A stretch of 64,000 nt of DNA from Hormiphora californensis (taxonomy: Eukaryota > Animalia > Ctenophora), in assembly GCA_020137815.1 (NCBI GenBank), contig CM035361.1:4650001-4714000 (forward strand), in the 5' to 3' direction. Within the stretch, counting starts at the first letter, position 1, and the number at the start of each line of letters is the position of its first letter. A program made the translations under genes and the position numbers. This document shows positions 1-53,508 of this stretch, piece by piece. A model generated the notes under the pieces. That model worked only from the letters and a program-made list of their open reading frames with translations, was not told where the DNA came from and ran no database searches.

Positions 1-1375
1 CTCTCTTTCTAAACCCCATATCGGGTGGGCCACCATTCTACTAGTGACGATTCTACTGCATACCGGTAATTGATCTGCGTCTCTCCCCCTGGACCCCACT
101 CTTCCTTCTCCTACTATATCTCTCTTTCTAAACCCCATACCGGGTGGGCCACCATTCTACTAGTGACGATTCTACTGCATACCGGTAATTGATCTGCCCT
201 CTCTCCCCCTGACCCCACTCTTCCTTCTCCTACTATATCTCTCTTTCTAAACCCCATATCGGGTGGGCCACCATTCTACTAGTGACGATTCTACTGCATA
301 CCGGTAATGATCTGCGTCTCTCCCCCTGACCCCACTCTTCCTTCTCCTACTATATCTCTCTTTCTAAACCCCCATACCGGGTGGGCCACCATTCTACTAG
401 TGACGATTCTACTGCATACGGTAATTGATCTGCGTCTCTCCCCCTTGACCCCACTCTTCCTTCTCCTACTATATCTCTCTTTCTAAACCCCATATCGGGT
501 GGGCCACCATTCTACTAGTGACGATTCTACTGCATACCGGTAATTGATCTGCCTCTCTCCCCCTGACCCCACTCTTCCTTCTCCTACTATATCTCTCTTT
601 CTAAACCCCATATCGGGTGGGCCACCATTCTACTAGTGACGATTCTACTGCATACCGGTAATTGATCTGCCTCTCTCCCCCTCACCCCACTCTTCCTTCT
701 CCTACTATATCTCTCTTTCTAAACCCCATACCGGGTGGGCCACCATTCTACTAGTGACGATTCTACTGCATACCGGTAATTGATCTGCCTCTCTCCCCCT
801 GACCCCACTCTTCCTTCTCCTACTATATCTCTCTTTCTAAACCCCATATCGGGTGGGCCACCATTCTACTAGTGACGATTCTACTGCATACCGGTAATTG
901 ATCTGCCTCTCTCCCCCTGACCCCACTCTTCCTTCTCCTACTATATCTCTCTTTCTAAACCCCATACCGGGTGGGCCACCATTCTACTAGTGACGATTCT
1001 ACTGCATACCGGTAATTGATCTGCCTCTCTCCCTCTGACCCCACTCTTCCTTCTCCTACTATATCTCTCTTTCTAAACCCCATATCGGGTGGGCCACCAT
1101 TCTACTAGTGACGATTCTACTACATACCGGTAATTGATCTGCGTCTCTCCCCCTGACCCCACTCTTCCTTATCCTACTATATCTCTCTTTCTAAACCCCA
1201 TATCGGGTGGGCCACCATTCTACTAGTGACGATTCTACTGCATACCGGTAATTGATCTGCCTCTCTCCCCCTGACCCCACTCTTCCTTCTCCTACTATAT
1301 CTCTCTTTCTAAACCCCATATCGGGTGGGCCACCATTCTACTAGTGACGATTCTACTGCATACCGGTAATTGATC
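1..1375 (+). repeat. ~118-bp tandem array, 12 copies of the BCKDHA phospho-loop exon plus GT donor and pyrimidine-rich spacer
   Basis: Near-identical units GGTGGGCCACCATTCTACTAGTGACGATTCTACTGCATACCG|gtaattgatctgc...ctaaaccccata(t/c)cg. Confidence 0.95.
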
Positions 1376-4300
1376 AATTAATACTATACTGCCTCTCTCC
1401 CCCAATCTGACCGCACTCCCCCACCTTTCTCCCAACTTCTACTTTCTCACTGCTCCCCACTCCCACTTTCCCTCTAAACCCCCTCTCCACCCACTCCCCA
1501 CTCTCACCACCCCTCCCTCTCCACTCTCTCCCTAATACAGAAGTATAGATGAGGTAAACTACTGATCCCACTATCCCCACTCTACCCCACTCCTAACCCT
1601 CCCTCTAAACCCCCACTTTACCCCACTCCCATTCTACCCCACTCTCACCACCCCTCCCTCCCCACCCCCACCCTCGCCACTCTCCCTAATACAGAAGTAT
1701 AGATGAGGTAAACTACTAATCCCACTATCCCCACTCCCACTCTACCCCACTCCTGTCTCCTCCTAACCCTCCCTCTACTCCCACTCTACCCACTCCTCCT
1801 AACCCTCCCTCTAAACCCCCACTTTACCCCACTCCCACTCTACCCCACTCCTCCTAACCCTCCCTCTAAACCCCCACTCCCACTCTACCCCACTGTTCCT
1901 AACCCTCCCTCTAAACCCCCACTCCCACTCTACCCCACTGTTCCTAACCCTCCCTCTAAACCCCTACTCCCTCTCTACCCCACTGTTCCTAACCCTCCCT
2001 CTAAACCCCCACTCCCACTCTACCCCACTCCTCCTAACCCTCCCTCTAAACCCCTACTCCCTCTCTACCCCACTGTTCCTAACCCTCCCTCTAAACCCCC
2101 ACTCTACCCCACTATCCCCACTCTCCACCCTCTCCACTCTCACCACCCTCTCCACTCTCTCCACCCTCTCCACTCTCTATCCCGGCCCAACTCACATTCT
2201 CCCGACTCCCTCTAAACGCTCACTCTCCCTAATACAGAAGTATAGATGAGGTTAACTACTAATCCCACTATCCCCACTCCCACTCTACCTCACTCTCACC
2301 ACCCCTCCCTCTAAACCCCCACTCCCACTCTACCCCACTCTCACCACCCCTCCCTCTACTCCCACTCTACTTACCCAACTCACATTCTCCCGACTCCCTC
2401 TCCACCCCACTCTCCCTAATACAGAAGTATAGATGAGGTTAACTACTAATCCCACTATCCCCACTCCCACTCTACCTCACTCTCACACCCCTCCCTCTAA
2501 CCCCCACTCCCACTCTACCCCACTCTCACCACCCCGCCCTCTACTCCCACTCTACTTACCCCACTCACATTCTCCCGACTCCCTCTCCACCCCACTCTCC
2601 CTAATACAGAAGTATAGATAAGGTAAACTACTAATCCCACTATCCCCACTCCCACTCTACCTCACTCTCACCACCCCTCCCTCTAAACCCCCACTCCCAC
2701 TCTACCCCACTCTCACCACCCCTCCCTCTACTCCCACTCTACTTACCCCACTCACATTCTCCCGACTCCCTCTCCACCCCACTCTCCCTAATACAGAAGT
2801 ATAGATGAGGTTAACTACTAATCCCACTATCCCCACTCCCACTCTACCTCACTCTCACCACCCCTCCCTCTAAACCCCCACTCCCACTCTACCCCACTCT
2901 CACCACCCCTCCCTCTACTCCCACTCTACTTACCCCACTCACATTCTCCCGACTCCCTCTCCACCCCACTCTCCCTAATACAGAAGTATAGATAAGGTAA
3001 ACTACTAATCCCACTATCCCCACTCCCACTCTCTATCCCCACTCCCACTCTCTATACCGGCCCCACTCCCACTCTCTTCTCCCTCTAAACTCTCACTCTC
3101 CCTAATACAGGAGTATAGATGAGGTTAACTACTGGGACCGGGAGGACAGTCCAGTGGGTCGGTTAGCACAACATCTCATTACCAAGGGCCTATGGAGCAC
3201 TGATCTAGAGGAATCATACGCTAAAGAGGTAGTTGGATAGTCTTAGGAACCGACCGAATCAGGAAATACTGGTCCCTGATTGGCTGATAACCAGTCACGT
3301 GACCTAAATAACGAGTTGGGGGGGCCGTCACCTTTTTTTTTGTCTACAGGAACATTGCACCAGATTTTGAAAATGAAAGTGTAGACAAAAGTAGACAAAA
3401 GTAGACAAAACTTTTTTTTTCAAGTTAATAATAATAATAATACAGTCAGACCCCGATTTAGGGGCCCCCGATTTAGTGGCACCCCGATTTAGGGACAGGA
3501 TTTTTTTCCCCCGATATAGGAAATTAACCTTATTTGACCCCGATTTAGTGGACACCCCGATTTAGTGGACAAGAGCCTTTCCCCCGAGGGTGTCCCTAAA
3601 TCGGGGTCCGACTGTAACTATGTTTATATTCCGCCCATATCCGACAGGGACAGAGCAGTGAAACTGCTGCTGTCACTGAAGGATAATCTGAACGGTTAAT
3701 ATACTAGTAAGACCTTGACAACTTATCCCTAATAGAACAAAAATTAATAAAGAAAAAACACCGGCTCACATTACTATCGGCTCACATAACTATCGGTGAC
3801 TGATTACATAACAGACTGAGTTAGAGTCCTGGAACTCTAAAAAGATTGATATAAAAGTCCGTAGATTGGAAACACAGAAAAACACTCGTGCTATGAAAAA
3901 ACCCAACTTATGCTTCACACTTCTGCTCGCCACGAGTTAAGAATTTTTTTTAAATTTTCTGCACTTGTTAAGTATTCTCATACACATTATCTACGTTTCT
4001 ATTAGTAATTTCGATTTTAATTGCCCCCTCTTTACCCCCAACCACAAAAGTAGACAAAAGTAGACAAAAATTTTTCAAGTTTAGAAAACAATTCCCAAAC
4101 AATTTCTATCCTTGATATTTATTTCCATGTTCTCTATTTGGACTATATTTATGTGTGTACGGGTGTTTGTGACTTCAATTGCTCCCTCTTTACCCCCAAA
4201 CACTCTTAGAACACTTTAGGAACACCTGTAGACAAAAGTAGACAAAAAATTTCAAGTTTAGAAAACGATTTTTATCCTCGATATGTATTTCCATGTCCTC

Positions 4301-6139
4301 TATTTATGTGTGTATGGGTGTTTGTGACTTCAATTGCCCCCTCTTTACCCCAAACACTCTTAGAACACTTTAGGAACACCTGTAGACAAAAGTAGACAAA
4401 AGTAGACAAAAAAATTTCAAGTTTAGAAAACAATTCCCAAACAATAATTTCTATCATTGATATGTATTTCTATGTTCTCTATTGGAACTATATTTATGTG
4501 TATACGGGTGTTTGTGACTTCAATTGCTCCCTCTTTACCCCCAAACACTCTTAGAACACTTTAGGAACACCTGTAGACAAAAGTAGACAAAAGTAGACAA
4601 TAAAATGTCAAGTTTTAGAAAACGATTTCTATCCTTGATATGTGTTTCCATGTTCTCTATTTATATGTGTATGGGTGTTTGTGACTTCAATTGTCCCCTC
4701 TTTACCCCCAAACAATCTTAGAACACTTTAGGAACACCTGTAGACAAAAGTAGACAAAAAGTTTTCGAGTTTAGAAAACAATTCCCAAACAATTTCTATC
4801 CTTGATATGTATTTCCATGTTCTCTATTGGGACTATATTTATGTGTGTACGGGTGTTTGTGACTTCAATTGCTCCCTCTTTACCCCCAAACACTCTTAGA
4901 ACACTTTAGGAACACCTTTAGACAAAAGTAGACAAAAAGTTTTCAAGTTTAGAAAACGATTTCTATCCTTGATATGTATTTCCATGTTCTCTATTTATGT
5001 GTGTATGGGTGTTTGTGACTTCAATTGCCCCCTCTTTAGCCCCAAACACTCTTAGAACACTTTAGGAACACCTGTAGACAAAAGTAGACAAAAAGTTTTC
5101 AAGTTTAGAAAACAATTCCCAAACAATTTCTATCCTTGATATGTATTTCCATGTTCTCTATTGGGACTATATTTATGTGTGTACGGGTGTTTGTGACTTC
5201 AATTGCTCCCTCTTTACCCCCAAACACTCTTAGAACACTTTAGGAATACCTGTAGACAAAAGTAGACAAAAGTAGACAAAAAATTTCTAGTTTAGAAAAC
5301 GATTTAGAAAATTATTTTTTAAATTTTCTGCACTTGTTAAGTATTCTCATATAATACTTTATCTACGTTTTTATTAGTAGTTTCGTTTTCAATTGCCCCC
5401 TATTTACCCCCAAACACTCTTGTCTATAACACTCGACTACAGTAATTGTTCTTAAAGTTTTCTAATTTAGGAATAAAGAAGGGGCCATTGGAATATGAAT
5501 AATTAATAAAAAACATATCCAAAGTATAATATGAAAATACTTAACAATTAAAGAAAATGCAGAAATTGTTTTCTGTACTTGAAAATTTTTTGTCTACTTT
5601 TGTCTACTTTTGTCTACTTTTGTCTACTTTGCACTGAAATTTTCAAAGTGCTGTAGACAAAAGTAGACAAAAAAAAGGTGACGGCCCCCCCAACGAGTTC
5701 TGATTGGTTGTTTACTTGTTTCGGTCGGTTCCTGGATATTCTTATCTCTTCTGATAGTACACATTTATCTAATAATTCACAACGATATATTTATTACAAT
5801 CAATCAAGCATTGACCTGAGTCCTCACTCCTCAGTCCTGTTCCTTTTCTCATTTCTTTCAAAGCACACGAGAATTACAGTGGTCATCGAGGGTTGGCCTG
5901 ACAGGGTTAAACTCTTCCTCAAAATGCAGCTAACCCCTTCATTATTCTAGTGCCGGAAAGAAATAATGACGTCATTTGCTCGGGCGGAATCTGAACGAAG
6001 CCCCAATCCTCTATGGGTCTTTGACGATGTATACGACTCTCTCTCGGATCATCTGGTCGAACAGAGACGAGAGATGAGGGAGCATCTAGAGAAATACGGA
6101 GAGAACTATTCTCTTGATAAATACATGCCTGTGGAGTAA
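24..6139 (+). CDS. BCKDHA: Branched-chain alpha-keto acid dehydrogenase E1 alpha, 3' part (5' exons lie outside the window)
   Basis: A 42-nt exon-like unit (first copy 24-65) reads (R)VGHHSTSDDSTAYR. Exon 3111-3228 reads SIDEVNYWDREDSPVGRLAQHLITKGLWSTDLEESYAKE. Last exon 5951-6139 reads CRKEIMTSFARAESERSPNPLWVFDDVYDSLSDHLVEQRREMREHLEKYGENYSLDKYMPVE*. Phases are consistent and the peptide matches the known BCKDHA C-terminus. Which 42-nt copy is spliced is unknown. Confidence 0.93.
1380..3110 (+). repeat. C-rich intronic repeats (~187-bp period in 2220-3000) carrying copies of the next acceptor and exon start
   Basis: ctccctaatacag|aagtatagat(g/a)aggt(t/a)aactact with AG ending near 1540, 1694, 2237, 2424, 2609, 2796, 2983; the productive acceptor ends at 3110. 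Confidence 0.9.
3427..3936 (-). mobile_element. 3'-UTR fragment of a LINE with (TTA)n tail
   Basis: 3617-3936 is nearly identical to 25608-25933, which lies downstream of a LINE ORF2 C-terminus; (AAT)n at 3427-3442. Confidence 0.85.
3443..3614. mobile_element. Tc1/mariner-type MITE (family B)
   Basis: CAGTC(A/G)GACCCCGATTTA TIRs, TA TSD, inserted in the LINE tail. Confidence 0.88.
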
Positions 6140-28100: not shown

Positions 28101-31100
28101 TTGAACTTCAAGTGGTCCCAACGACACAGCGGGCCCCACCCTACATCAGTTGGAATTGTACAGTCCTTGATGGATTGTAGTAGTAGCGTTGGAAATCTAG
28201 AGCCGTCTTACCTTGTCGCCAAAATCCTGTAAGAATGAAATACTTTCAATTCCGTATTGGTGGTGTCCGATTTGTACCTCACATTATCCCCAATTTGTGC
28301 ACACTAAAGGTTGTCAAACTTTGCAGTTTATTGCTGTTTACCATAAATTTGAGCTGGGGGGTTCGTAGCCTATAATGGGGGTTCCTAGTTGGTTACGAAG
28401 TCACCCTTGTTATTATTATTGCATATTGGGGTTACAGTGGCCAGTGGGGCCCCATGGCCCCACTGGCTCTCTCTCATTCATACGTTGCTGCTGCTGTACT
28501 GCTACTGGTACATTCTACTTCCTAGCTACCGTGTGTGTGCACCCTTTACCTGCATCGTGAATCAAACATCTGAATAGCTTGAGAGAGAGAGAGAATTTGA
28601 TTGTTAACAAAACTTGATTTGTCAATCTGTGAATATGACAAAGACACGCTCTGCTTCTAAATCTGACTCTGTATCCAGCCCGATTCTTGAAATCTTTAAT
28701 GATCCAGAAAGTGTCAACATCAGCTCGATAGAGGATTTGAAGAAACACTTTAACAGCCCTGCTAGTGTTGAGGATGTCCTCCTTGCTCTGTTTTGTATGA
28801 GTCGTCAGCAGCGGCAATTTCTGATTTGCCGCATACGGCGTCTAGACGGCGTCGCAACGCCGTCTAGACGGCGTCTAGACGGTATACCGTCTGGACGGGT
28901 TTCGGTGAAATCAGCTAAAAACGGTACCGAAATTGCTTGAGACGGGTTATAGACGGTATCAGACGGTCTCTAGACGGGTTATAGACGGTATCAGACGGTG
29001 TTGCGACGGTATCAGACGGTCTCTAGACGGTGTCTAGACGGTACCGTCCCGGCGTCTGGACGGCGTCTGGACGGTGTCTAGACGGTATCCGTCCGAAGTT
29101 GAGACGGCACGTCTGAAAATTGTACCAGACGTTGAGACGGACTTTTAGAACTCCGTCTGTATTTCAGACGGAGTTTTAAAAGTACGTCTCAACGCAGTCT
29201 AAAGGAAAATCGATGAAAGTACCGTCTAGACAACGTCTCAACTGAAACCGGTCAACATACCGTCTAAACAACGTCTAGACAACGTCTAAACAGAATCTCG
29301 CGATTCAGTTTCAAATACCGTCTAGACAACTTCTCCAGCAATTTCGATAAGAATACCGTCTAAACAACGTCTAGACAACGTTTCAAATAATGATGTCTAG
29401 ACTCGACCGTTTTCGAAGACCATTCTGGATTACCCATGCCAGTTGGAATTAGTGGTAGATGTGTGCCTATTGAATGAAAATTACACATGTGTTTAACCAG
29501 CACAGTCGTACCGCGATGCTCGGGGACGGGAAAGGGGTTATCCTCCCGGTAATTTTCGTACCCAACTTCTTACATTCAACCAAACTGTTTTGGTATCTCC
29601 ACATTCACTCTTACATCCAGCTATCGCGTTGTAATACAACTGTGAGATACTGTCTATGGCTGATACTATCAGTGATAGATAGTGTCGGTTATGAGACGTT
29701 GTTTAGACGGTATCTGTATCGGATTCGCTTAAGACGTTGTTTAGACGGTATTCGTATCGAAATTGCTGGAGAAGTTGTCTAGACGGTATTTGAAACTGAA
29801 TCGCGAGATTCTGTTTAGACGTTGTCTAGACGTTGTTTAGACGGTATGTTGACCGGTTTCAGTTGAGACGTTGTCTAGACGGTACTTTCATCGATTTTCC
29901 TTTAGACTGCGTTGAGACGTACTTTTAAAACTCCGTCTGAAATACAGACGGAGTTCTAAAAGTCCGTCTCAACGTCTGGTACAATTTTCAGACGTGCCGT
30001 CTCAACTTCGGACGGATACCGTCTAGAAACCGTCCAGACGCCGTCCAGACGCCGGGACGGTACCGTCTAGACACCGTCTAGAGACCGTCTGATACCGTCG
30101 CAACACCGTCTGATACCGTCTATAACCCGTCTAGAGACCGTCTGATACCGTCTATAAACCGTCTCAAGCAATTTCGGTACCGTTTTTAGCTGATTTCACC
30201 GAAACCCGTCCAGACGGTATACCGTCTAGACGCCGTCTAGACGGCGTTGCGACGCCGTCTAGACGCCGTATGCGGCAAATCAGAAATTGCCGTCAGCAGC
30301 GTGAGAATGAGATCCATCTTGAGAAGAAAGTAGTCAGTCTTACCACTGAAGTTGAGCGCCTTACTACTGATCTCGAGAAAGTGGAAGACAGGTTGCTTCG
30401 GTCCGAGGCGTATCAGGGAAGGAACACTGTCTTACTAGCTGGTGTACCCGACTCCACCAACGAGACCCAGAAACAGCTGGAGAACAAGGTTGTCACCGCC
30501 CTCAAGCTCGCTGACCCCACTATCAGACCAGAACACCTTGGTATCGTACATCGGAACAAGGCAAGGCCTGCTGGTCGGACGGTTACAGTCGTCTTCAACC
30601 GTGCCCGACAGAAAGACACCGTGATGAGGAAACAGGGTAGAAACAAGATGAAGAGGATTAACTGTTCGGAGACCTGCCCACCTACTTGTACTGACCACCG
30701 GGGAGTTGCAGCAATGCACAGACTATCACCAGCCCTGGCTGATCGCAAGAAGGAAATTGAGAATTTACCGAGTGTTGAATGGGTGTGCTTTTCAGGCCAC
30801 CGTCTTTTTACAGTGTGCTATGACAAAGACAAAATTAAACACAACGTAATCCGAGCAAGTGATCTTGAAATGGATTAGTTGGCAGTGAATTTCTGTGTGT
30901 TAAGGAATGTGTTTTATTGGAATGTGCGTGAGAATAATTCTCTACCTCCTGCACACATTTTTTCTTAAACTTGCTGTTAACTTCCCTATTTTACCTCCTT
31001 TACCTGTTTTTTAATACCCCTGTTTTTACCCTCTAGTTACCTACTCTTCCTTTTTGACCCATTTATCCATTTTTAATCCCACTAACAATCATTCTCTCTC

Positions 31101-34100
31101 TCTCCATTACTGCATGTCTGTTATGTTTTCATCGTGTGCTGACGTGGAGGTCTGGGCTGTGGCGGTGCTCCTGTGGCGATCTACTATCTCGAGGCTGGTG
31201 TGTGTGTCTGTCTCTTACTATGTATCAGGTATTTCAATTACCCTACTAGTTGTCTCTAACCCCTCTATTGTAAATCCTGGTCCTAGAAAACTCAAAGTTA
31301 TCTTTGCCAATGTTCAGGGTTTGGTTAGTCCTGGTCATGTTGGATCAGCTGACCCTCCCCTGAATATGGCCAAGGTATATGAAATTCAGGACTATGTTTA
31401 CAGAAATGATATTGATATAGTTATTTTTAATGAGACGTGGCTAAAATCTAAAATTGATTCTTCCCTAGTTTTCCCCCGTAACTATAAAGTTTTCCGTCAA
31501 GATAGAACTGGGTACACACACCCCCGTGACCCCAATAACCCTCTTAAGTTTAGGGAAAATGGGGGTGGTGTACTTATAGCCCATCGTGAGAATATTGATG
31601 TTACCAGTGTTCGTTTCTCGGGTGTTAGAGCTAGAGCCGAGTTATTAACTATCTCCCTTTCTTTCTCTTCTGGGAAGAAACTATGTGTTTCGACTTTCTA
31701 CAGAGTCGGAAATTTGAGTGAGGATAATTTTCTTCAGTTTAAAGAACATTTTAATGCTATTTTCTCTCGTCGTAATGTTTGCAAGCATGTACTTGTTGGA
31801 GATCTAAACTTTCCCGGTGTAGATTGGCCTCTGTCCTATCCCCGCACCGGGATCGAAGACAGTTTTCTGCGGTACCTGCTAGATGACTTGGGGCATAGTC
31901 AAATGATTAATACCCCCACACATATTGGTGGACGTATTTTAGATCTCTGCTTTACAAATGATCCTGAGTGTGTAAATAATTTTGATATTCTTGATTCTGA
32001 TGTGCTATGCTCGAGTGACCACTTTCCTTTTACTTTCAATATTAACATGGACGTGAAAAATGTGAAAGAGGACCGACGTAAAGTGTTACTATTTGATAAG
32101 GGTGATTTTGAGAGTATATGTGCTGACTTGAGTGCCATTAACTGGACTAATGTTTTTACTGGTGACATGGAGTATAATGTTTCTGCTTTTAATTCCATCA
32201 TCACTTCACTCATTGAGAAGTATATCCCCACTAAACTTGTTAAAAATATTGTCCTTCCCATTTGGTGGAGTAGCGAGTGTGAGAATGCCAGAACTAGAAA
32301 AGAGAATCTGCGTAAGCGTTATAAGAGTTCGGGTCTGAAATCTGATTATGACAATTTTAGTGCTGCTCGTTCTTATTTTAAAAATGTTTGTGATTCTAGA
32401 AGTAGAAATTGTCTTGATATTGATGATACTGATAACATTAGTAAGAAGTTTTGGAGACAGGTGAAGGTAAACTCCAAATCTACTCGGATACCCAACATTG
32501 TTAATGATGGTGTGGTGTTCAAGTCAGATTCGGAGGGACAATCTAACTTGTTCAACCAGCACTTTGTTTCTAATTTCTCTAGTCCTAGTAACTACAATAT
32601 TGAGGAGACTGTTGAAAACATTTTTGATGCTGGGGATTTAGCCTCTTATGAATTCAGTGGAAGTGAGATACACTCCGTTCTATCTGCCCTGAATGCTCGT
32701 AAGGGGCCTGGCCCTGATGGTATCCATAGCATTGTCTTTAAAAAGTGTGCTGGTGTACTTGCATATCCCCTATCCCTGCTCTATAACCAGGCCTACTTCA
32801 CTAGTGACCTCCCGTCCATCTGGAGATCCGCTAATGTAGTACCAGTCCACAAGTCAGGCGATAAAAGAGATGTTAGAAACTACAGACCTATTTCTCTTAC
32901 TTGTATAGCTATGAAAGTTTTTGAGAGAATGATGAGTAACCGACTTCTTGACCTCTGTTTTGACAAGATTGATCGACGACAGCACGGTTTTCTCCCTGGG
33001 AGATCTTGTCTAAGTCAAATGATTTCTTTCACGGACACCCTCTTCCAGACTGATAACAACCGACTGACAACTGACATTATATATACCGATTACAAGAAAG
33101 CTTTTGATAGTGTCAGTCATGATATCATCTTGGAGAAGCTTACATCCAAATTTGGTATCACGGGTAAATTATTGGGTCTTATTCGTGTTTATCTTATGGG
33201 CCGTACCCAAAGAGTTGCTGTTGGAGGTAGTCTCTCATCCCCCCTGGCTGTTGCTAGTGGGGTACCACAGGGGAGTATTATCGGTCCCCTCTTGTTTGTT
33301 CTGTTTATGAATGACGTGTATGACTGTCTCGAAGGTGATTGCGAGTGTCTTGTTTATGCTGATGATGTCAAGCTCTTTAATAAAATCACTAGTTTTAGAG
33401 ATCACTTAGACCTACAACTCAGTATTGATAACTTGTATCGATGGTCAGTTGATAATAAGATGACTCTACACCCCCTTAAATGTAAAGTAGTTTCTATTTG
33501 TTCTTCTCGTTGTGTGCAAACCTGGGGTCAACTTCCTTTCTTTTATATGAACTATACATTGAATGGAGTTGATCTTATCGGTGTTGACTCTCAGAGAGAT
33601 TTGGGTGTTTTTGTGTCACAAGATTTGTCATGGAAATATCATATAGACTTTATACTTCAGCAGTTCACTGACCGTTTCAACATGCTTCGTAGAACTGTTC
33701 ACTTCATTAAGAACATTCACCAGAGACGTATACTGTACCTCTCTCTTGTTAGGTCCCTTCTTGAGCACTGTCCCCAGGTTTGGGCCCCCACTCAGGTGGG
33801 TCTCCGTGTAAAGCTTGAGGCAGCTCAGAAGAGGGCCATCAAGTGGGTGTATTGCGTCAATCCCATTGTGAGTTGGAGTGAGGAAATATATTATCTTAAC
33901 TTATCCAACATTAGTATTCTCCCTATTCACCTTCACTTTCTCTTTAATGATCTCAAGCTGTTCTACAAAGTTATTTCGGGTATTATAAATCTTGATCTTC
34001 CCCCTTATCTCTTTCTTAAGAGCCCTACTGACATCTCTTACCGAACCCGGGCTAACCGTGACATAATTGACCTTGTCGATTTCACCACGGTTGGCTGTAC

Positions 34101-37100
34101 TGTTCAACCTCTGAGCGCAGCCTTTAGAAACAGCTTTTTTGTCAGAACTTACCCTAAATGGAATGAACTCCCAGTCGAAATCAGACAATCATCTTCCCTT
34201 GATATTTTCTCGATTGGACTGAAGACCCGCCTATTTAAATCTATTACACCCCCTGCTCCCCCTTAACTTTCCCAGCTACTACAGACACACCACTCCAGCT
34301 CTCCTGCCTCGGACGCCGCCATTAGACCACCTCCCTCCTCTTCAGCGCACCGTTATCTTCTTCTACCAGCATGCAGTGAAGGGTTGAGAGTTGAGAACTG
34401 TTTTTATAGGTTTAATTAAGAACAATTTTTAATAGATATTTTTACTCTGGGTGCCACCTGTTATAGTGGACTGACTCCATGTTGGTGGAGCCCGGGACGT
34501 GCGGCTTTATTTATTGACATTTATTTATTGTATATAACGTTCTAATTTTTCCATGATAAAAAAAATGGGGGTTCCTACTATTATAATGGGGGGTCACCAT
34601 GACGTAGCATATATTACAACAAAAATGCAACCTCCCCAGGTTCAATGTCACTCGCTTCTCGGATGCAAAGAAGATTCTGGAGACTCTACCCACTAAAACA
34701 AGTGCCACGCTGGAATTACTGGCTAGTTGTTGGGTGGCGCTCGGTGATCAGATATCTGCCCTTAGTGTGTTCGAGGAGGCGAGGTGAGCCAAGAATTTAG
34801 AAGTTGTATGGAATTATAAATCTAGAATGTTAACAACTCCCAGCTTGGTATAATGGCCTAACATCTTACGGTGAGAGATTGCCCAGCAATCGAAAAAGAA
34901 TTTCCCTCGGTGTACCCTTGTAAATTAGACGAGAAGGATCTTTGTTTTTCCACTTTTCACACTTCTATGTTTGATCAAGCTTTGTTTCCGAATTTCACAC
35001 TTGCACCAGTGCTACTAAGTAAGATATCTTTAAGGAGAAGTTCAACTTCCGAGACTAATGATTGATCCAAACAATTGGTGTTTTGTTTCTCATTTCGATT
35101 AGTTCAAGCTCCAGGTAACACTTTCTCGAGTACTTTCACTAGCATCTCTTCACAGAGCAAGAGACTAATGATTGAAAAGATTTACTAGCGCGAGTATAAC
35201 AATACAGCCGGATTAGCTAGATGAATAGGTTGATTAAGAAACCACGTGTTGTTAGTTTTACACCTTACTCGACACCTGCCAACAAGAGCCTAGTATATTA
35301 ACCCCCCCCCCTCACTACTCACTACCACTACCGACCACTACCGACTACCGACCACTGGAAAAGAAGAAGAAGATGAAGTTCCTGATTGTTCTACTGATCG
35401 CCCTGGCCCACGCTAAGGACGATGGACTGAAGACCATCCTTCAAAGTCCCACCAAGACCCTGGAGCTCTACAAAAAGTTCAAGGGAGAGCAGCACCTCCA
35501 GTTTAGCTCTGCCGAGGAAGGGATGAGGTTCAGGCTGTTCAAATTGAGTGCCCATTTTGTTGCCAGCGAGAATGATGTTGAGGGAGAGACCGCCCACTTC
35601 GCACTCAACATGTTCTCCACGATGGCGGAGGCTGAGAAGCAGTCCTACCTGGGGCTCAATGTTACCGGACATGAAAATGATAACGATGATGTTGCAGATG
35701 ATCTCCTAGCTGAGGGAGTTTCCGCTCCCAGTGAGAAACTCTGGACGAACGAGGGAAAGGTGACACCGGTGAAAAACCAAGGTTCCTGTGGATCTTGCTG
35801 GACTTATGGAGCTGTCGGAGGTCTGGAGACGAGGTACGCTACCAAAACCGGTGTACTGAGAAACTTCGCCGAGCAGGAGTACCTTGACTGTGTCTACAGC
35901 ACCCGAAACGGATGTAATGGAGGATGGCCCGATGATTGTTACACATACTCTGCTAGATACGGACGACTGGCACCTTCCTCTTCTTACTCCTACCGTGGAT
36001 ATGATAGTACCTGTAAAAGGAACTTCCATAATGACGGTCTTGTAGCCGCAACGATTAACGGTAAGATATCCGTAGGAGTATCTGAGTCCCAGAACATTGC
36101 TGCACTGGCTCATGGTTCCCTTTCTATGGCTTTCCAGGCGACAACCCGGTTCTTGAGTTATTCTGGAGGAATCCTGTCAGACAACACATGCACGGGGCGA
36201 GCTAATCATGCTGTTACTGGAGTGGGTTACACCTCTGAATATATCCTGGTTAAAAACTCCTGGGGAAGCAGTTGGGGTGATCGCGGTTTCGTCAAATTCG
36301 CCCGGGGATACCCTAGTGACTGCAAGCTGTTCGCCCACTCTAGCTACCCTGCCCTCAGTTCCACTGGATACCCAGATTCTGGGTCCGATGCCGCTACCAC
36401 CTACAACCCCAAGCCGTGTGAGAATACCGTCAGTGGGGAGTTGTGCAGGCAGTATGATGACGCGTACAATTACTGCAAGTACGATTGGTTTAAGGAGGAC
36501 TACTGCAGGAAGTATTGTACTAAGTGCAGTGACTAGTGGTACGCCATACTTTGTGACGACATGGAGTCTGGAGACATGAGCACATATGTGCTAGACAAGA
36601 CTACTGCAGCTGCACTGCAGCTCCCCCTAAAGACTAGAGGAGAATATGTAGATTGTAGTTCTAATTCAAATTTATTGATTTAATAAATTATTATGCATTG
36701 AAAACTACGGGTGTTTCATGAGCCATGGTTCACTAATTTCGCTATTGGTTACTTTCAAATCATGCACTCATATGTGATGTCTCACACCCGTCGACGGAAA
36801 TATGAGTATTTGAGTATTTCATACTGACTAGGGAACCCATCAAGTTGAAGCCCCGTCGACTACGAAAATCGTGCTAAAAGGAGTTTGGGTTAATCAATCA
36901 GTGGTTTCCTGTACTGCTGCAGTATACACGCCATTTATTTATTTTAACATTTGAAGTCAGTTAGTGATTTCCTCATTCTTCTTTTTGGCAGCTGATAACA
37001 GTTTATTTGATGTAGGTTACCCAGCTGCCCTACGATGCATGATTCCTATAACAACTATAATGGCTAGGAAAAAATCAATGGGGTGTTACACTGTTACACA

Positions 37101-40100
37101 ATCAATTTGTTGAAGCTATATATTATATTTTCTACTAGCTGGAGTATATAAGCTACGTAATGTTTCTAAACCAATATATCAAAAGTCTTATAAGTACATA
37201 GTGCTAAATAGGACAGTACTATAATAGGTACTTAGGGAACCCCTCTCTCTCTCTCTCCCCCTCTCTCTCTGACTAATCAGATACAGCTGCCTCACCTTGG
37301 ATCATTGCTAGGTGGTGGACAAGTAACTCGATGCCACAACCTGTCAACTCAATTATTGAAGCATTTAGCAAAGTTTTTCTTTTTCCCCCGTCAATATTTA
37401 ACACCAATCAACGCGAACGGTGTTAGTACAATTCATTCAACTAGCACAGTTATTTATTTATTCCTTCAATGTCTCGTGGTCTAACAGATGTGTGTTCCTT
37501 TGTTTTTAACCCCTCCCCTCTCGTCACATGACCAGCCTTCCTTTGTTTTATATTTTCTAACCCACCCTGTCATATGACCACAGAAGCTTCTTATAAAAGC
37601 AACGGTGTGATGTTCGTTAACTATTACTACGTTATACTACCACTTAAAGAGGCCCTCTACTACTACAATCACCATGAGGATATTCCTGTTGATCGTTTTG
37701 GTTATTGGGGTTACACTGGCGACTAATGATGCGATCAAATGGATCTACTTGGAGAACAAGTCCGGGACTTCTGGCTCTGGAAACTATGTTGGAGTTCCTC
37801 GGATTATGAATTATGCCGACTGGAAGGGAACTGTGTGCAAGAAGGGGTTTGGACAGAATGAGGCTGACTTCCTGTGCCGCAAGATTGGCTTCCCTGGTGG
37901 GGGAACGTTCACAACCTACGGAGATCTTGAGGGAAAGTACCAGACTTCTACACATTTATGGCAAAACTACCCAGGAAAAATTACAATTACCAACTGTAAG
38001 GCAAACGCAGTGAGACTAAGTGATTGCAACTACCAATATGGCGGGTACTGTACAATAGACGACACTGTGGCCCTGAAGTGTAATCCCACGTGGGAGCTGG
38101 AGAAAGTGGAGTTAAAGAGGAACGTCAGCAGCACGGTTGTAAGTGGCAGCTACGGGACAGTGATCACCGCGATGAGAAATACTGCTGATGGATCCTTAAA
38201 AAGTGGCATGTATTACCGTGGTTATGACTACTCTCCATCCACTAGGGATTTCTTCTGCAGAAAGGCAGGCTATCCTCTTGGGGCCGAGGATCATGGAACA
38301 AACGAAAACAAACGGAATGAAAGCCTAGCGGAAGCATTCATTGGACGCCAATTTGCGTTCCCACGTGGTTGTAACTGCCCGGCAGGTACAAAGGATCTAT
38401 CAGAGTGCGGCAGGTCTTATAGACCTTTTACCTATAATACACGTACATGGGAGGAAGGGGAAGTTTTATTTTGTAGGACACCAGCGCCCACACCAGCACC
38501 CACACCAGCACCCACACCAGCACCCACACCAGCACCCACACCAGCACCCACACCAGCACCCACACCAGCACCCACACCAGCTCCCACACCAGCACCCACA
38601 CCAGCACCCACACCAGCTCCCACACCAGCACCCACACCAGCACCCACACCAGCACCCACACCAGCACCCACACCAGCACCCACACCAGCACCCACACCAG
38701 CTCCCACACCAGCACCCACACCAGCACCCACACCAGCACCCACACCAGCGCCCACACCAGCACCCACACCAGCACCCACACCAGCACCAGGGCCTTGGAA
38801 CTCGACGATAACCATAGAAACGGGACACGGGTTAAAATCAGCCAAGGGCACTGTCGTCCTTAAAAACCAGTACACCCTGAAGAAAAGCCTGATCTGTGGT
38901 AAAGACTTGGACCGACATACCGCTGATTTAATTTGTAGGGCAGCGGGACTCCGGTTTGCAGAAGCGATTGCGATCAACTACGAGATTTCTCACGACGACC
39001 GATTGGATTGCTCTTACGTCAGGGAGAATGGCATCCAGCCGATACTGACAAATGTAAGCTGCCCCCGTAACGCTTCCTCCCTTGACTCCTGTTCTACAAG
39101 CCCAGTTGATGGTGGAGTGTGTGATGCAGACAGTGGACTACACTTGACCTGCACAGACGACATCCCTCCTTCCTCCGTGTGGGATCTAGTTGATATAACA
39201 CTGGCCAGGAACCCAGGAGGAGGCCACATGCCGGAGAATGTTGTTTGGAATGGAAACTTTGGGACAGCCATCGCAACCTTGCACAGCCGTGAGAATGGAA
39301 CCTTCCTGACAGGTCTGGTACCTGTCAGTGCCATGATACAAGGGAGCCCCTACTGCAACACCCAAGCCATGTGCCAGTCCATCTTGGATGCCTCGACCAG
39401 CTTCGCTGACTACAGGAGCACAGGAGAACTTGAGGAAAGTCACGGGAAAGGTCTCTCCTGTGGGTACATCATCAGTAATGATGTCAACTTCCTGCCTGTA
39501 ACCAGTATAGATTGTGGTTGTGGAGCCGATGTCAGTATTGAGGACTGCAGGGATATCGTCGTTTCACCAGAAACCCTACTTAGTGATCCTAAGGAGGCAC
39601 TCTGGGTTAACTGCTACTAGAGGAGATCAAGCAAACATTTTAAATTTCCAAAACCATTTTGAAATAATTTGATCAAAAGTCTAGTTTATCTTATTTTTCC
39701 GAAACACAGTTACAACCGGTTTGGTATTGAAAGCTATCTTGACTGATCCTGCATGTAATACAAGTGTAGACTGTATGTGTATGTGCGTGTACAACTTGTA
39801 CGAATTGTGTTCCTGCAGAAACCCTTGGTCATCTTCAGCTTCCCTTTTCCCTCATCAGAATGTCGCTCGGCAATTTCCGCATTCGCTCGGGAGACGGCTC
39901 GGGAACAACAGGTGGTTTGCCGAGCCATGCGGCCTTGTGCGGTAAGTTTTCGGCGACCTCCTTGACTCTCCGAACCACTGGTTCGGCAAACCACCTGTTG
40001 TTACCGAACCAATCACCGAGCCAATGCAGAAATTGCCGAGCGACATTCTGATGGGGGTTCCTGTACTCATTTCTCTTTTCCCTTGGTCAACTCCCTTTTC

Positions 40101-43564: not shown

Positions 43565-44786
43565 TCAAGATACCACCACCACGGGTATATCGACACAAAC
43601 GAGCATGGAGCCAGTTGTAGAGTCCTTGAGCTTCCATCTGGACACCAGTTTAATTGCTGGGTAGGAAGGCTGAACGTTGAGAGACTGAAAAACGGTTGTA
43701 GGTTAATCGGGTAAAAATTTGTTTTATCCTCCCGAATAGATCTAGGTTATATGGAGTATACGGACTTGAAATTATATTTTTTTCTCTACTTTTACTAGAG
43801 TCTCTGCTGTGAGGCCAATGCTCTGACAAAGTCTCTGAGTAAAAATAAATATTTCAATTTTCAATCAAACCTCTGTGAACGTGGCAGTTGTCCCCGAGGC
43901 AACTGGACATACGTTCCCACAGGCGACACAACCATCACTGAAATTGTGGGGTATTCGTGTCATGATTGGGAAGATTCTTGTTCTTATGACCCTCCTTTAC
44001 TGCAAATGTAAAGAGGGTCGGGCAAGGCAAAAAGATTCATTACATCATCAATGTTCCCAAAAACTCAGTTTTTGACTAACGGTTGGGGTAAAGGGAAGAC
44101 ATAACACGACACATAATGCCCTAATATGGACATAACGTGACACATAATGCCCTAATATGGACACGATACTAACGGTTGGGGTAAAGGGAAGGGGACGGGT
44201 ATTCCAGCAATAACTCCAGCAAGACTGGCCTTCATTGACGTGACAGCCACCTTAGATTTAAAGGTTACATTGATATCGTAACTGTGTCCTAGGAAAGTTA
44301 TAAGTTTTAGACTGATATCAATTAGCAAACTCTTAGATGACATCTCTTATCAGAACTTTATTTCATTTTGGATTTCACTTCATGAAAAACATCCTGAAAG
44401 CTGAGTTTCAATTCCTACATCTCTGTCTCTGCTCTCTATAATTGTAGCATACGGTGTGTATGTAACTATAACCTATCATACCTTCATGGCAGGAACCGAC
44501 CGAAACAAGTAAACAACCAATCAGAACTCGTTATTTAGGTCACGTGACTGGTTATCAGCCAATTGCAGGGACCAGTATTTCCTGATTCGGTCGGTTCCTG
44601 CTTCATGGTAGAGTGAGTAACTTTACCTTTTCGAGCTTTGCAAACAGGATCAGTGCAAGCTTTACTGAAAACTTTGATTATCTCTCCAGAGCTGCTGCCA
44701 CAGTCCTTGAAAGTTAGGTCAACTGCAGAAACAACTGCAGCCAAGGCGAGAAGGAGAAGAATTGAGCGCTGTAGAATAATCATCAT
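43565..44786 (-). CDS. NPC2: NPC2-like sterol-binding ML-domain protein
   Basis: Exons 44786-44627, 44288-44174, 43937-43871, 43684-43565: signal peptide, FKDCGS, GIPVPFPLPQPDGC, YPAIKLVSRWKL, CVDIPV. Confidence 0.92.
44490..44600. mobile_element. MITE family A
   Basis: Exact TSD CTTCATGG. Confidence 0.92.
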
Positions 44787-45697: not shown

Positions 45698-48303
45698 CTA
45701 TCTGAATCCATCTAACACCGCAAAAGGGTCGTCCATAAGGGATAGGTCGTCCTCCATACAACTGCATTCAGTGACAACCATGATTGCTCGGTAGCTGTTG
45801 GGAGAAAGTAATTGATTAGTAATTAACTTGTTGGGAGGAAGTAGTTAACCTGTAATTAACTTGTTGGGAAAAAGTAATTTTTTATCAATCAATTAATCAT
45901 TTATAGCATATATTTGAAGTATGACAAACTTGAACCAATGAACCACTGATAAGTTTATTAAACTTTTTGACTAGCCTTGGCAAGCTCTAGGTTACTCTGT
46001 CGAGCACTTTCGCTGCAGCATAGCATCTCTTTACAGATCAAGAAAAGAAGTTTACACACTCACTGTAGTTTGGTGGACCCTAATATGGGCATATAAACTC
46101 ACTGTAGTTTGGTGGATCTCCTAATATGGACATATAAACTCACTGTAATTTGGTGGATCTCCTAATATGGGCATATAAACTCACTGTAGTTTAGTGGATC
46201 CTGGACAGATGAATCTCTCCGTGGAGACATGCCAGGAAGTTGGTTTGTTTGCAGAGCCAACATCACACAACTCCGTGCAGCGGGTGTGGGGGATAGTGGT
46301 TACTGACTTGCACTCATCTACTATCAGGTAGGTGTTCACCTGGAGAGGGGGTCAAGGTTAGTCCAATTGTTGAGTAACCAGTGGTTACCAGTGGTTACTA
46401 GTGGACTAAGTTAGTCCATGATACCCCTTACTTAGTCCTTAAGATACAGATGTGATATTATTTTCAATTTTAGCACTGGCACGATTTCAAATCGTATATA
46501 AATTTAGAAAACTATAAAAAACATAGACATAAATATTGGCAGTAAAACTACTATTGTAGGAAAAGAATTTTGTAGTCTTTTTGGCGCTCGAATTAAAGGT
46601 ATCTTAAAATTGCAGCTGTATTAAGTACTGCCAATATAAAAGTATTTAATAGGCAGCAAGTTATCGTGTAAGTGCATGTGTGTGTTTTGCACCTCCCATG
46701 GATAAAAGTATAAAATATTATTGGCAGAAGGCAGTGCGAAGCTTATACAAGAGGCTATGTACATAATCATGACTTACTTGAGCGTTTCTATTTGTAAGTG
46801 GATCAAAGACTACGTCACAATCTCGAACGTTACAGTAGGCAGATTCAGCAATTTCCTCCCCGCATTTCCTTCTCTCTCGGTAGGGTAGTGAGAACTCTAA
46901 ATACCTGTAAAATATAAATGAAGTCTTTCACCTGGGTCTGTAAAAAGTTCACCCCTTACTCAACAAGTAAGAATTGGTGATCATAAACAATTGTTACCCA
47001 ACAATTTCAAGAAGGTTCATTTTTGAGTCAAAAGGTTCCATTTCTATTGATTAAACATAAGAACACTCTTGTTTTCTACCTATTCATGGTCCCAGGGCCG
47101 CATTCAGAGGAGCATTCCGTCCAATCGCTCCACGTTGCTGACGAGTGGCAATCTAAGATAGGATTAGGTTTTAGAGAACAAGTATCATGCTGCCAGAGCA
47201 ACCCCAATGAACCGCACCAACCCCTTGGTGACATAGACACCTGTTTAGCATTGTTCTAACCCTCCCTTTACATACACAAAGTATAGCTACTGCTAGGCAA
47301 TTACCTGTTGGGCATTGTTCCCCAGATGGCAGGACCCCATTGTTGTAGGAAACTCGGAGAAGAGTGGCAGTTTCAAGCTGGGAAATGGGAGCAAACCCAT
47401 CAAATCCGGATCCCGCGTGAACACTGAAAGATGGATTCTGTTTACTCCAAACAGAACAAATACATTAATTGTTAATTACAGATTAAATATAATCGGATAT
47501 TTGATATTATGTGTAGTCGCATGACAGACAGCGATTAGTTTCCGCCGAAAAGAGTTTAATCTTATCTCTGTCTCAGTAACAAAAGAGTTGGCATATTTAC
47601 CCGAAGGATCCATCCTCATATCGTGTGAGAAAGAACGCTAACTTTGCTCCCTTTTCTAAGTTCCTATAGCAGTTGCCTCCTGAACAAATGCTAAATGTCA
47701 AAGGTGGCCAGTAATTGTTTTCTTCAAAAGAATCATAAAAAATTATATTTTATTAATTTTAAATTAACTTACGTCCGCTGAAGTAGGCCGTTTCCACGCT
47801 AATTATCTCCGATGTGACTGGTCCTTTGAATCGACACAGCACTGACACCGTCAAAACTAATTTATATGAACTCTCCCTGCAAAGTATCCAGTCAAAAAGG
47901 GATACAAATTTTTTTTCTTTTCTTGTTTAGCCTTATTTATCTATTTTAGCTATTTCTGTAAAGCTTATGGTATTCACCAAATAGCAAGAACGCGAACGAT
48001 TGAGTAACGTAAATGATACCTTCCATCGAAGTGTGAGAGAGGGACAGATCAGGGTCGGGCAAGGCAAACGCTTACTCTCGTTAAAAAGTTTCTTACTAAA
48101 GCGTTTCTTAAAAAACGAGAGTAAGGTATATCATTTATTTCTCACCTATGAGTAGCAATGATTTCCCCATACACAACAGAGTCAAGGTAAGAGTTACTGT
48201 TAGTTAGTTGCTGAAGGGTCGGAACGGTGCAGGATTTAGCCGCAGAGAGGGAGGGGAGGACAAGGAAGAGAGTTATGAGGTATGATCCTAGGTTTATCAT
48301 CAT
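45698..48303 (-). CDS. Secreted 303-aa protein: NtA/NTR-like + TSP1 + CT cystine-knot-like domains
   Basis: Exons 48303-48146, 47876-47773, 47679-47601, 47423-47305, 47152-47080, 46904-46778, 46339-46185, 45794-45698 are all in phase. Motifs: DSVVYGEI...VSVLCRFKG; WSDWTECSSECGPG...CNVRDC; ECKS...FICPG...MVVTECSC. Confidence 0.85.
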
Positions 48304-51115: not shown

Positions 51116-53508
51116 CTAATCCTCCTTAACATGGATAGTGAATCGAGCATTACCTCCGGTCCCGGTCTGTTTGGGATCTCGGGGCTCCTAATTAGGGGAA
51201 GAAAGGATTGGTTTAAGATTATTTTTCTGAAGGAGACAACCTATAGATTAGACTAGTTCTATGAACGAAATCATATGTTTGCGTGTCCCGTAATTGAACG
51301 GATGCGGGCCTAGAATACAAACATCATTTTTTTAGGAAGGGGGGCCGATCTGGGCCTTAATTATTATAAACATCCCTTGAAAAAATATTGTATTTCAGTA
51401 CCTGATCCTCGTTAAAACCAATGTGTCGTCCAGGGAAGTTTACAGACTGGAAAGACACGGATCCGTCCTTGTGGAAATTGGGCTTGAATACACAGTATCG
51501 ACCTCCCGCTCCCTGTACACACAAAGAAAATGTGGTTAGATATGTAGAGTGGTACATAATAAATACGCAAATTAGGTGGTTAGATGTTATAGAGGAGATG
51601 TAGTCGAGTGGTGGATTTGAATTAGCAGGAGTTGTAGATCTGTTATAGTAGAATTTTCTACAGATATTCAAATGAAAAGCTAATGATGATTTGTTAGGAT
51701 CTTTGCAGCCTGCAACAGTGTATCAATCACAACTCACAGTTGTAAGACCAGATTTCTTGATGGCGATGAATCGGTGAGGCTTGTTTTCATTTTGAAGTCT
51801 GAGAGTTCCATCGTGATCGTTCTTTTGGACGATAAATGTTGCCCAGCTTCCATTTCCACCTGGGTGAGATATATTCTTGTTTTGTTGTGGGGCGCGGGGA
51901 AGGAGGTTCGAACAAGGCAAATGTATTCAGAGTGAAATTGCTGCTAGAAAAAAACTAGCTAATTAATGAAAATTTATTGCTGATTTAAATACCAATTAAA
52001 TGCTAATTAATGAAAATTTATTGCTAATTTAAATACTAATTAAGCAATAGTTAACTAATCAAACACTAATTTAATACTAATTAACTAATTAACTAATTAC
52101 CCTGAAGATCCAGCTCGTCATCTCCATTGCACCTCACGTGGCCTCCATGTCGAGACTCCAGGTGGATTCGAGAACCATCCTGCATCTTACCGAACCGGGC
52201 TGAAATCGAATCAAGGGGTTACTTTAATTTGGAAGGGATTTTTTTTTAATCACGGGGTTACATTTCTTGTGGGTGTTGTGTGTGTGCTTCGCTGCCAACT
52301 TCGTCAGAGACGAAGTACGGGGGCGGAGCGACTGCGTCGCTCGTGCGTTACATACAGGGGATAGCGCGACGTGCCCAAGTGTGTATGAGTTGAAGTGCTG
52401 AAATTATCACGGGCGGGATGGTTTTTCCCAGACAATTTTAGTTTGAACCTCGCGGTTGCGCGAGTTCTAATACCAGCTGCTAGACAATACAAATACTCAC
52501 CGATGACGTAAGAAAAGTTGTCTGTTTTCCTCTCCTCGCCTCCAAAGGGGAAGTGGCACTCAAAGTTTCCACTGTCAAAGTTGAACTTTCCCGGAATATC
52601 TCCCTCATCAGTATGAGCAACGGTAACGTAGGTACAAGCACCATCATCCTTGGAAGGGAGTGTTAATACCATATATGGGCATGACACGTGACCCACACTC
52701 CATATATGGGCATGAGACCTAACATACACTCCATATACGGGCATGACACATAGTATACCTGGGCACCGAGAAGGAGAGCTCCCTCAGGGGGATCATTTCC
52801 CTCCACAGCGGGCCTCAGGATAACACCATGTCCATTAGAACTGATCCACTCGAAATCCCCGCAAGTGTGCTCTTCTCCTCCATAGGGAAACCAGCATTCT
52901 CCACCATTAGCCTGGGCTTTTCCTAAAAATAGCAAGGAATAACTTTGCGGTTTTTCCTAAAATTAATAAGGAATAACTTTGCGGTTTTTCCTAAAATTAA
53001 TAAGGAATAACTTTGCGGTTTTTCCTAAAAATAAAAAGGAATAATTTTGCGGCTTTTCTTAAAAATAACAAGGAATAACTTTACAGTTTTCCTAATAATG
53101 ATAAGGAATAACTTTGCGGTTGAGACTTCAAGTACTCCCGCGCCCATAAAGGGACTGGAAGCTCACTCCTTGTTATCATACAAATGAGAGTAATTTGTAG
53201 TTACCTGGGATTGTACCGAACTCAGTTCGAGCGAGGACACAATAGTAATCACCCGAATCATACTGATGTCCCAGCCTGAAGAAAATAAAATGAGGTTTAG
53301 GGATATATCCACACAGATTTTGGAAAAAACGGCACAGTTTTTGCTTCACCGACACAGAAAGGGTAGCCGTTCATCCAAAGTTATTGATAACTTTATGAAG
53401 TTTTGTGAAGAATTATGAAGATCTGTGAAGATTTGTGTACCTGAAAGAGTGGTCGGCACATCCGTCCCCGCACTCGGTAAATCGAAGTCCACAACAGTCA
53501 CGATCCAT
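51116..53508 (-). CDS. Cytosolic protein with two DM9-like repeats and a C-terminal beta-trefoil-like domain
   Basis: Exons 53508-53441, 53275-53205, 52922-52759, 52648-52501, 52199-52101, 51859-51738, 51512-51402, 51187-51116. Motifs: GTIPGK...CWFPYGGEEH, GDIPGK...CHFPFGGEE, DGSRIHLES, DGTLRLQN, DGSVSFQSVNFPGRHIG. Confidence 0.85.

Follow-up and report, generated by a model that had tools for sequence, protein, structure and literature searches.

How is an intron removed cleanly when its splice sites have been repeated many times over? The question is raised by a locus of the ctenophore Hormiphora californensis, within a 64,000-nucleotide stretch of contig CM035361.1 (hereafter the window). 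The original prediction, made from the sequence, described an acceptor that recurs together with the start of its exon, each upstream copy leading into an in-frame stop. It offered poison exons, recursive splicing or a departure from first-AG scanning as explanations, with neutral duplication as the fallback.

Matches to the human chain identify the host gene as BCKDHA (branched-chain keto-acid dehydrogenase E1 alpha). The coding pieces follow one another in the order of the human residues (286-301 in a repeated unit on the donor side of the intron, then 302-339 and 342-398 in the penultimate and last coding exons; Table 1), giving frame continuity across them, and the 16 residues encoded by the donor unit directly precede exon 3111-3228 in BCKDHA. 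The penultimate exon has its donor GT at 3229, and an RNA contig ends at 3228. Among the five best relatives, the open frames of four start and stop at the same exon limits, while the fifth (P0045) reads through at the intron position. Because these limits are common to four of the five, the intron is likely older than the arrays that now occupy its ends, and a gain of the intron through boundary duplication was rejected on the strength of these shared limits. An exact 27-nt scan of metagenome contigs gave no matches; a protein scan with the last BCKDHA exon found a single locus (L001, 50% identity over 36 residues), and homologue searches with the same exon returned one 57-aa fragment (96%) and no longer match. 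The last BCKDHA intron is filled by a MITE-like element (3310-5699) with 31-nt terminal inverted arms and internal repeats of 167, 178 and 334 nt.

The acceptor side of the preceding intron is repeated as described. A search with a 35-nt word recovered eight copies of the acceptor plus exon start between 1528 and 3135, all with 0-3 mismatches, and no further match on either strand of the 64-kb window when as many as eight mismatches were allowed. The 13-mer that ends in the acceptor AG is present eight times on the forward strand and never on the reverse strand; the eightfold recurrence is not chance. The repeated exon start is present in every copy, but the copies are not identical: the +1 base is A in all seven decoys and G in the true exon, GAG has become AAG in two copies, and GTT has become GTA in four. 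Each decoy keeps its AG, and translation confirmed that all seven read SIDEVNY or SIDKVNY and meet a stop after those seven codons (TGA in copy 1, TAA in copies 2-7). Only copy 8, the authentic acceptor, reads TAC TGG and stays open (YWDREDSP). The AG/GTAAAC motif that would bound a 13-nt microexon is likewise found in four decoys (1, 2, 5 and 7; the slash marks the possible splice point).

The layout of these copies is mosaic. In addition to the 187-nt period, irregular units of 154, 543 and 127 nt occur on the acceptor side; decoy 3 has the upstream tract of the true acceptor, and decoys 4-7, whose codon variants alternate, belong to the 187-nt array. The copies most unlike the inner ones are the true acceptor and decoy 1. 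Decoy 1 retains the TG of the Trp codon before the spacer (TG/A), and the other six read TAA, one substitution away. The seven stops are thus probably one duplication-junction event copied six times, and therefore not seven signs of selection. Every one of the 28 AG dinucleotides between 1366 and 3108 lies within the seven decoys, and each acceptor copy has a pyrimidine tract of its own. Other C-rich minisatellites, lacking a splice signal, surround the arrays, whose copy numbers are taken solely from the assembly.

The donor repeats of the same intron (1-1375) were overlooked in the original prediction. In each unit, ~47 nt from the end of the upstream BCKDHA exon are joined to the GT donor and to ~70 nt of intron rich in C and T; the exonic part encodes the last 16 codons of that exon (human chain residues 286-301, E 3.5e-5). 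The GT is kept in 12 of 12 units in the window, and reading through any donor copy leads to CGG TAA, a stop. With both ends amplified, this one BCKDHA intron holds at least 12 extra donors and seven extra acceptors. Single-base indels are found in the first four donor units. The 118-nt unit may begin at a breakpoint within the exon, or at a dead acceptor where other animals, humans included, have an intron; the match of relative P0048 begins at this position, and no unit in the window has an AG there. An internal AG of the donor unit was considered as the acceptor of a 21-nt in-frame pseudo-exon and rejected as too weak (0.2 bits).

Table 1. Positions of the repeated splice sites and associated features in the window
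Feature	Position	Strand	Details
Donor-side array	1..1375	+	118-nt unit, 11.6 copies, 97% matches; continues past the left edge of the window; GT at 66, 185, 304, 421, 540, 658, 776, 894, 1012, 1130, 1248, 1366
Decoy acceptor 1	1528..1565	+	AG ends 1540; SIDEVNY then TGA; AG/GTAAAC at 1554
Decoy acceptor 2	1682..1719	+	AG ends 1694; TAA; AG/GTAAAC at 1708
C-rich spacer minisatellite	1827..2104	+	45-nt unit, 6.2 copies, without AG
187-nt array	2186..3032	+	4.5 copies, 97% matches; decoy acceptors 3-7, AG ends 2237, 2424, 2609, 2796, 2983; AAG/GTAAAC in decoys 5 and 7 (GT at 2623, 2997)
Authentic acceptor (copy 8)	3098..3110	+	AG ends 3110; +1 base G
Penultimate BCKDHA exon	3111..3228	+	118 nt; human chain 302-339, E 5e-8
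Last BCKDHA coding exon	5951..6139	+	to TAA stop; human chain 342-398, E 1.3e-8; RNA contigs
Exon end and GTTAGT donor 44173, ML-domain (NPC2-like) gene	44075-44190	-	repeated once, 93 nt downstream (2 copies)
Exon end and GTGAGT donor, 41-nt repeat	46058-46200	-	true donor 46184; copies 46143, 46102, 46063
Acceptor 52923 and 5 exon bases, 34-nt repeat	52918-53121	-	6 units; AG in register in 4 of 5 upstream units

RNA was available from three runs as assembled oligo-dT contigs, of which one was informative (X1, a metatranscriptome); it derives from another sample, not this individual, the allele in that sample may have a lower copy number or lack the copies altogether, and rare isoforms are lost from contigs. 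An X1 contig of 321 nt (depth 13.8) covers 3105-3228 with one differing letter. It also matches the donor unit 1322-1366 without mismatch and passes from there into the letters of 3112-3141, including TAC TGG, and the Trp codon TGG is found only in copy 8. By the record positions the joint runs exactly from a donor to acceptor 3110, and the upstream exon and the intron end alike, which accounts for the 6-nt overlap into the intron. At least this one spliced contig passes over the seven proximal acceptors, as the prediction had required of the mRNA. The contig extends 102 letters 5' of 1322; the 30 of these that are shown are BCKDHA-like coding sequence present in none of the 12 units, and therefore the authentic exon and donor lie to the left of the window. 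No X1 contig was found on decoys 1, 2 or 7, the three tested, which is weak evidence at this depth of coverage. Run X2 gave four pieces of 31-32 nt on the C-rich spacer, and X3 gave nothing on the exon. The normal junction is present in RNA, which does not show that rare junctions are absent.

Amphioxus has arrays of this kind, known as 'mirages': exon-intron boundaries duplicated in the manner of minisatellites, at 5' and 3' boundaries alike, which are reported to be unstable in copy number and to leave regular splicing undisturbed (PMC3087553, PMC3902484). The genes concerned are Adh3, troponin C, the globins BflGb6 and BflGb9, and PGBD5; the BflGb6 mirage has units of 150-160 bp, 81-100% identical, in three or six copies depending on the haplotype (PMC3087553, PMC3902484). 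In those accounts, as at BCKDHA, the tandem unit joins an intron end to an exon start or an exon end to a donor, and most units keep their AG or GT. The amphioxus boundary units escape homogenisation, and at BCKDHA too it is the outer copies, the true acceptor and decoy 1, that differ most. The differences are the ctenophore host and the amplification of both ends of a single intron, for which no counterpart was found in the amphioxus passages compared. At BCKDHA the copies are tandem and minisatellite-like (periods of 118 and 187 nt), both units span a genuine boundary with coding sequence and an AG or GT, and regular mRNA arises from the authentic sites (one contig, from another sample). The pair of arrays belongs to the known mirage class and stands out only by the amplification of both intron ends.

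Duplicated boundaries with comparable properties are found in humans. The CBS 844ins68 allele has a duplicated intron-exon boundary with a stop codon that is bypassed by use of the distal acceptor; it differs in having one extra copy where BCKDHA has seven. Donor-spanning minisatellites are described in F7 intron 7 (37 bp), CBS intron 13, LAMIN B2, PDGF intron 4 and the interferon-inducible gene 6-16, where the most upstream donor is used mainly or only, with some leakage in CBS and 6-16 (PMC1557585). In these arrays, as in the 118-nt array, the first unit spans the boundary and identical intronic donors follow; as described there, the human arrays are confined to the donor side, and the F7 unit holds four exon bases compared with ~47 in BCKDHA (PMC1557585). 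A literature search for intron mirages in ctenophores, over a collection with few subscription journals, returned only a paper on a transposon family; the BCKDHA case would extend the class to ctenophores. It also puts exon definition to a natural test: with at least 13 donors and eight acceptors in one intron, the spliceosome has to choose the outermost of each. The locus would gain in importance if tandem duplication were genuinely biased towards splice junctions, or if one of the decoy microexons proved to be regulated; as it stands, this intron is a neat instance of a repeat type already known.

We asked whether the strength of the sites distinguishes the authentic acceptor. An acceptor matrix built from 22 other hand-annotated acceptors in the window gave 3.2-7.0 bits for the decoys and 6.4 for the true site. 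The true site falls within the range of the decoys, so strength by itself does not explain the choice, and position offers the simpler cause. The 12 donor copies all reach 8.1-9.1 bits. The internal donors of the four decoys that carry one reach 8.0-8.5 bits, compared with 6.7 for the true downstream donor and 2.2-9.2 for real donors in the window. Folding of four stretches of 111-118 nt (z -0.83 to +1.10) gave no sign that the decoys are masked by RNA structure; the region of the true acceptor folds more strongly, only through its G content.

Neutral duplication, the fallback of the original prediction, gives the best fit, and the BCKDHA repeats are most probably mirage minisatellites, silent and tolerated, rather than a means of regulation. 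They would have originated in one short tandem duplication across each exon-intron boundary, followed by expansion and mixing of units through slippage or unequal exchange. The acceptor duplication may have ended within the Trp codon, so that the stop was made once. Exon definition, a general principle of splicing that we apply to ctenophores by assumption, could account for the silence: only the last acceptor is followed by a coding exon, with a partner donor at a distance of 118 nt; for the decoys the distance to that donor, at 3229, is 245-1688 nt. Likewise only the first donor, upstream of the window, would follow a real exon. The decoys carry the less favoured +1 A (the +1 base is G in 11 and A in three of the 22 other window acceptors), and any rare leak would bear an early stop and probably be degraded. 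Several points weigh against silence. The RNA support is the single contig from a different individual, possibly with a shorter or repeat-free allele; the internal donors of four decoys outscore the true downstream donor, so that these decoys could be recognised as exons of 13 nt; and leakage has a precedent in human CBS and 6-16, each using one or two pseudo-donors (PMC1557585).

The principal alternative is that one or more of the AG/GTAAAC decoys is included as a 13-nt poison exon, shifting the frame and tuning BCKDHA through nonsense-mediated decay. By hand reading, inclusion of the 13 nt would shift the frame, and a stop would be met within a few codons of the true exon, ~105 nt ahead of the last junction, and an acceptor-donor pair whose inclusion gives a premature stop is present in four of the seven decoys. 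The donor-like sites score within the range of real window donors, and the unstable products would be missing from contigs. That no contig was found on decoys 1, 2 or 7 is weak evidence against this reading. The GTA that creates the donor-like site is a synonymous Val change from GTT and may have been copied from another allele, and 13 nt is very short for exon definition. The amphioxus mirages, as reported, yielded no aberrant mRNA (PMC3087553, PMC3902484). On balance we consider a regulated microexon improbable. A bolder version, in which ctenophore tandem duplications start preferentially at splice junctions and the BCKDHA array has already produced a working 13-nt microexon coupled to nonsense-mediated decay, would be a poison exon caught at its birth from a mirage in one of the animal lineages that branched earliest; it is slightly less probable again.

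Unregulated use of decoys or extra donors at a noticeable rate would make this a leaky, mildly harmful allele with lower BCKDHA output. Decoy acceptors that score like the true one and 12 strong donor copies are compatible with such leakage, as is the reported spill of the human CBS and 6-16 arrays to nearby pseudo-sites (PMC1557585). Against it, the sole transcript seen is normal, and the build-up of at least 19 additional sites within a single intron, in a core metabolic gene, suggests a low cost. We regard appreciable leakage as quite unlikely.

It is more doubtful still that the arrays or their copy numbers arose by mis-assembly. The copy numbers come without DNA-read coverage, and the single-base indels of the first four donor units are such as read errors would give. 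The units nonetheless differ in a mosaic fashion, with three spacer types, nested 45-nt and 187-nt periods and diagnostic variants of the +1 base, codon and stop; duplicated reads would not give such structured differences, and other genes in the window carry similar arrays.

Least credible of all is stepwise removal of the intron through the decoys or a non-scanning rule of 3' splice-site choice: ratchet points of recursive splicing resemble the decoys in being acceptor-like intronic sites with cryptic exons behind them, but are described as needing a donor juxtaposed to the acceptor AG (PMC8605326), an arrangement found in none of the seven decoys, which all read AG/AAG, regenerate no donor at their AG and are therefore not recursive sites, any use leaving exon-like bases in the mRNA, while the AG/GT juxtaposed 13 nt inside four of them uses the fourth AG after the pyrimidine tract, preceded by purines; and scanning, as described, selects whichever AG comes first after the branch point and not the earliest one of the whole intron (PMC12081236), so that skipped upstream acceptors, each with its own tract, break no rule and distal choice needs no new one.

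Ctenophores use spliced-leader trans-splicing (PMC8527503). Use of the decoys as spliced-leader acceptors was set aside, there being no evidence for it.

Duplication of splice sites is not confined to BCKDHA. Among the other splice sites annotated by hand in the window, 46 in all (a set that leaves out the selected BCKDHA acceptor and in which the out-of-window donor is not countable), three are duplicated into their own introns, in two unrelated genes, all on the reverse strand and without RNA support (Table 1). Relative to matched GT and AG controls, the excess gave P 0.20-0.34 when all non-exonic DNA was used and P 0.01-0.10 once seven stretches picked by eye, rich in repeats and mostly MITE-like, had been masked. 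Tandem repeats account for 13% of the Hormiphora genome (PMC8527503), so that a high background is expected.

Several further features of the window were observed. The multi-exon gene with the 41-nt donor repeat has weak DM9 and TSP1 matches, and the intron between donor 46184 and acceptor 45795 also has two upstream pyrimidine-tract copies ending in AAG, so that both of its ends are repeated. A motif family, CCATATATGG / CCTAATATGG / ATATGGGCAT, occurs within ~100 nt of splice sites in four genes, often in small tandem repeats (18479, 44120-44160, 46079-46175, 52669-52713 and 58015); it may be a very small dispersed element, or may seed duplication in its neighbourhood. In a sedoheptulokinase-like gene (57781-57850, forward strand), two similar acceptor-like words lie 46 nt apart; its exon has a 90% match to 'eukprot:sb/3468406/', and the best named match is Bolinopsis microptera (41%). 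By eye, a large near-palindromic element of 11-nt units (28830-30274) splits an open frame, just downstream of which lies a LINE-like reverse-transcriptase frame (~31100-34260). Two apparently intronless genes on the forward strand, also recognised by eye, encode a papain-like protease and a secreted protein in which Thr-Pro-Ala-Pro is repeated in 26 copies (35372-36535 and ~37690-39620).
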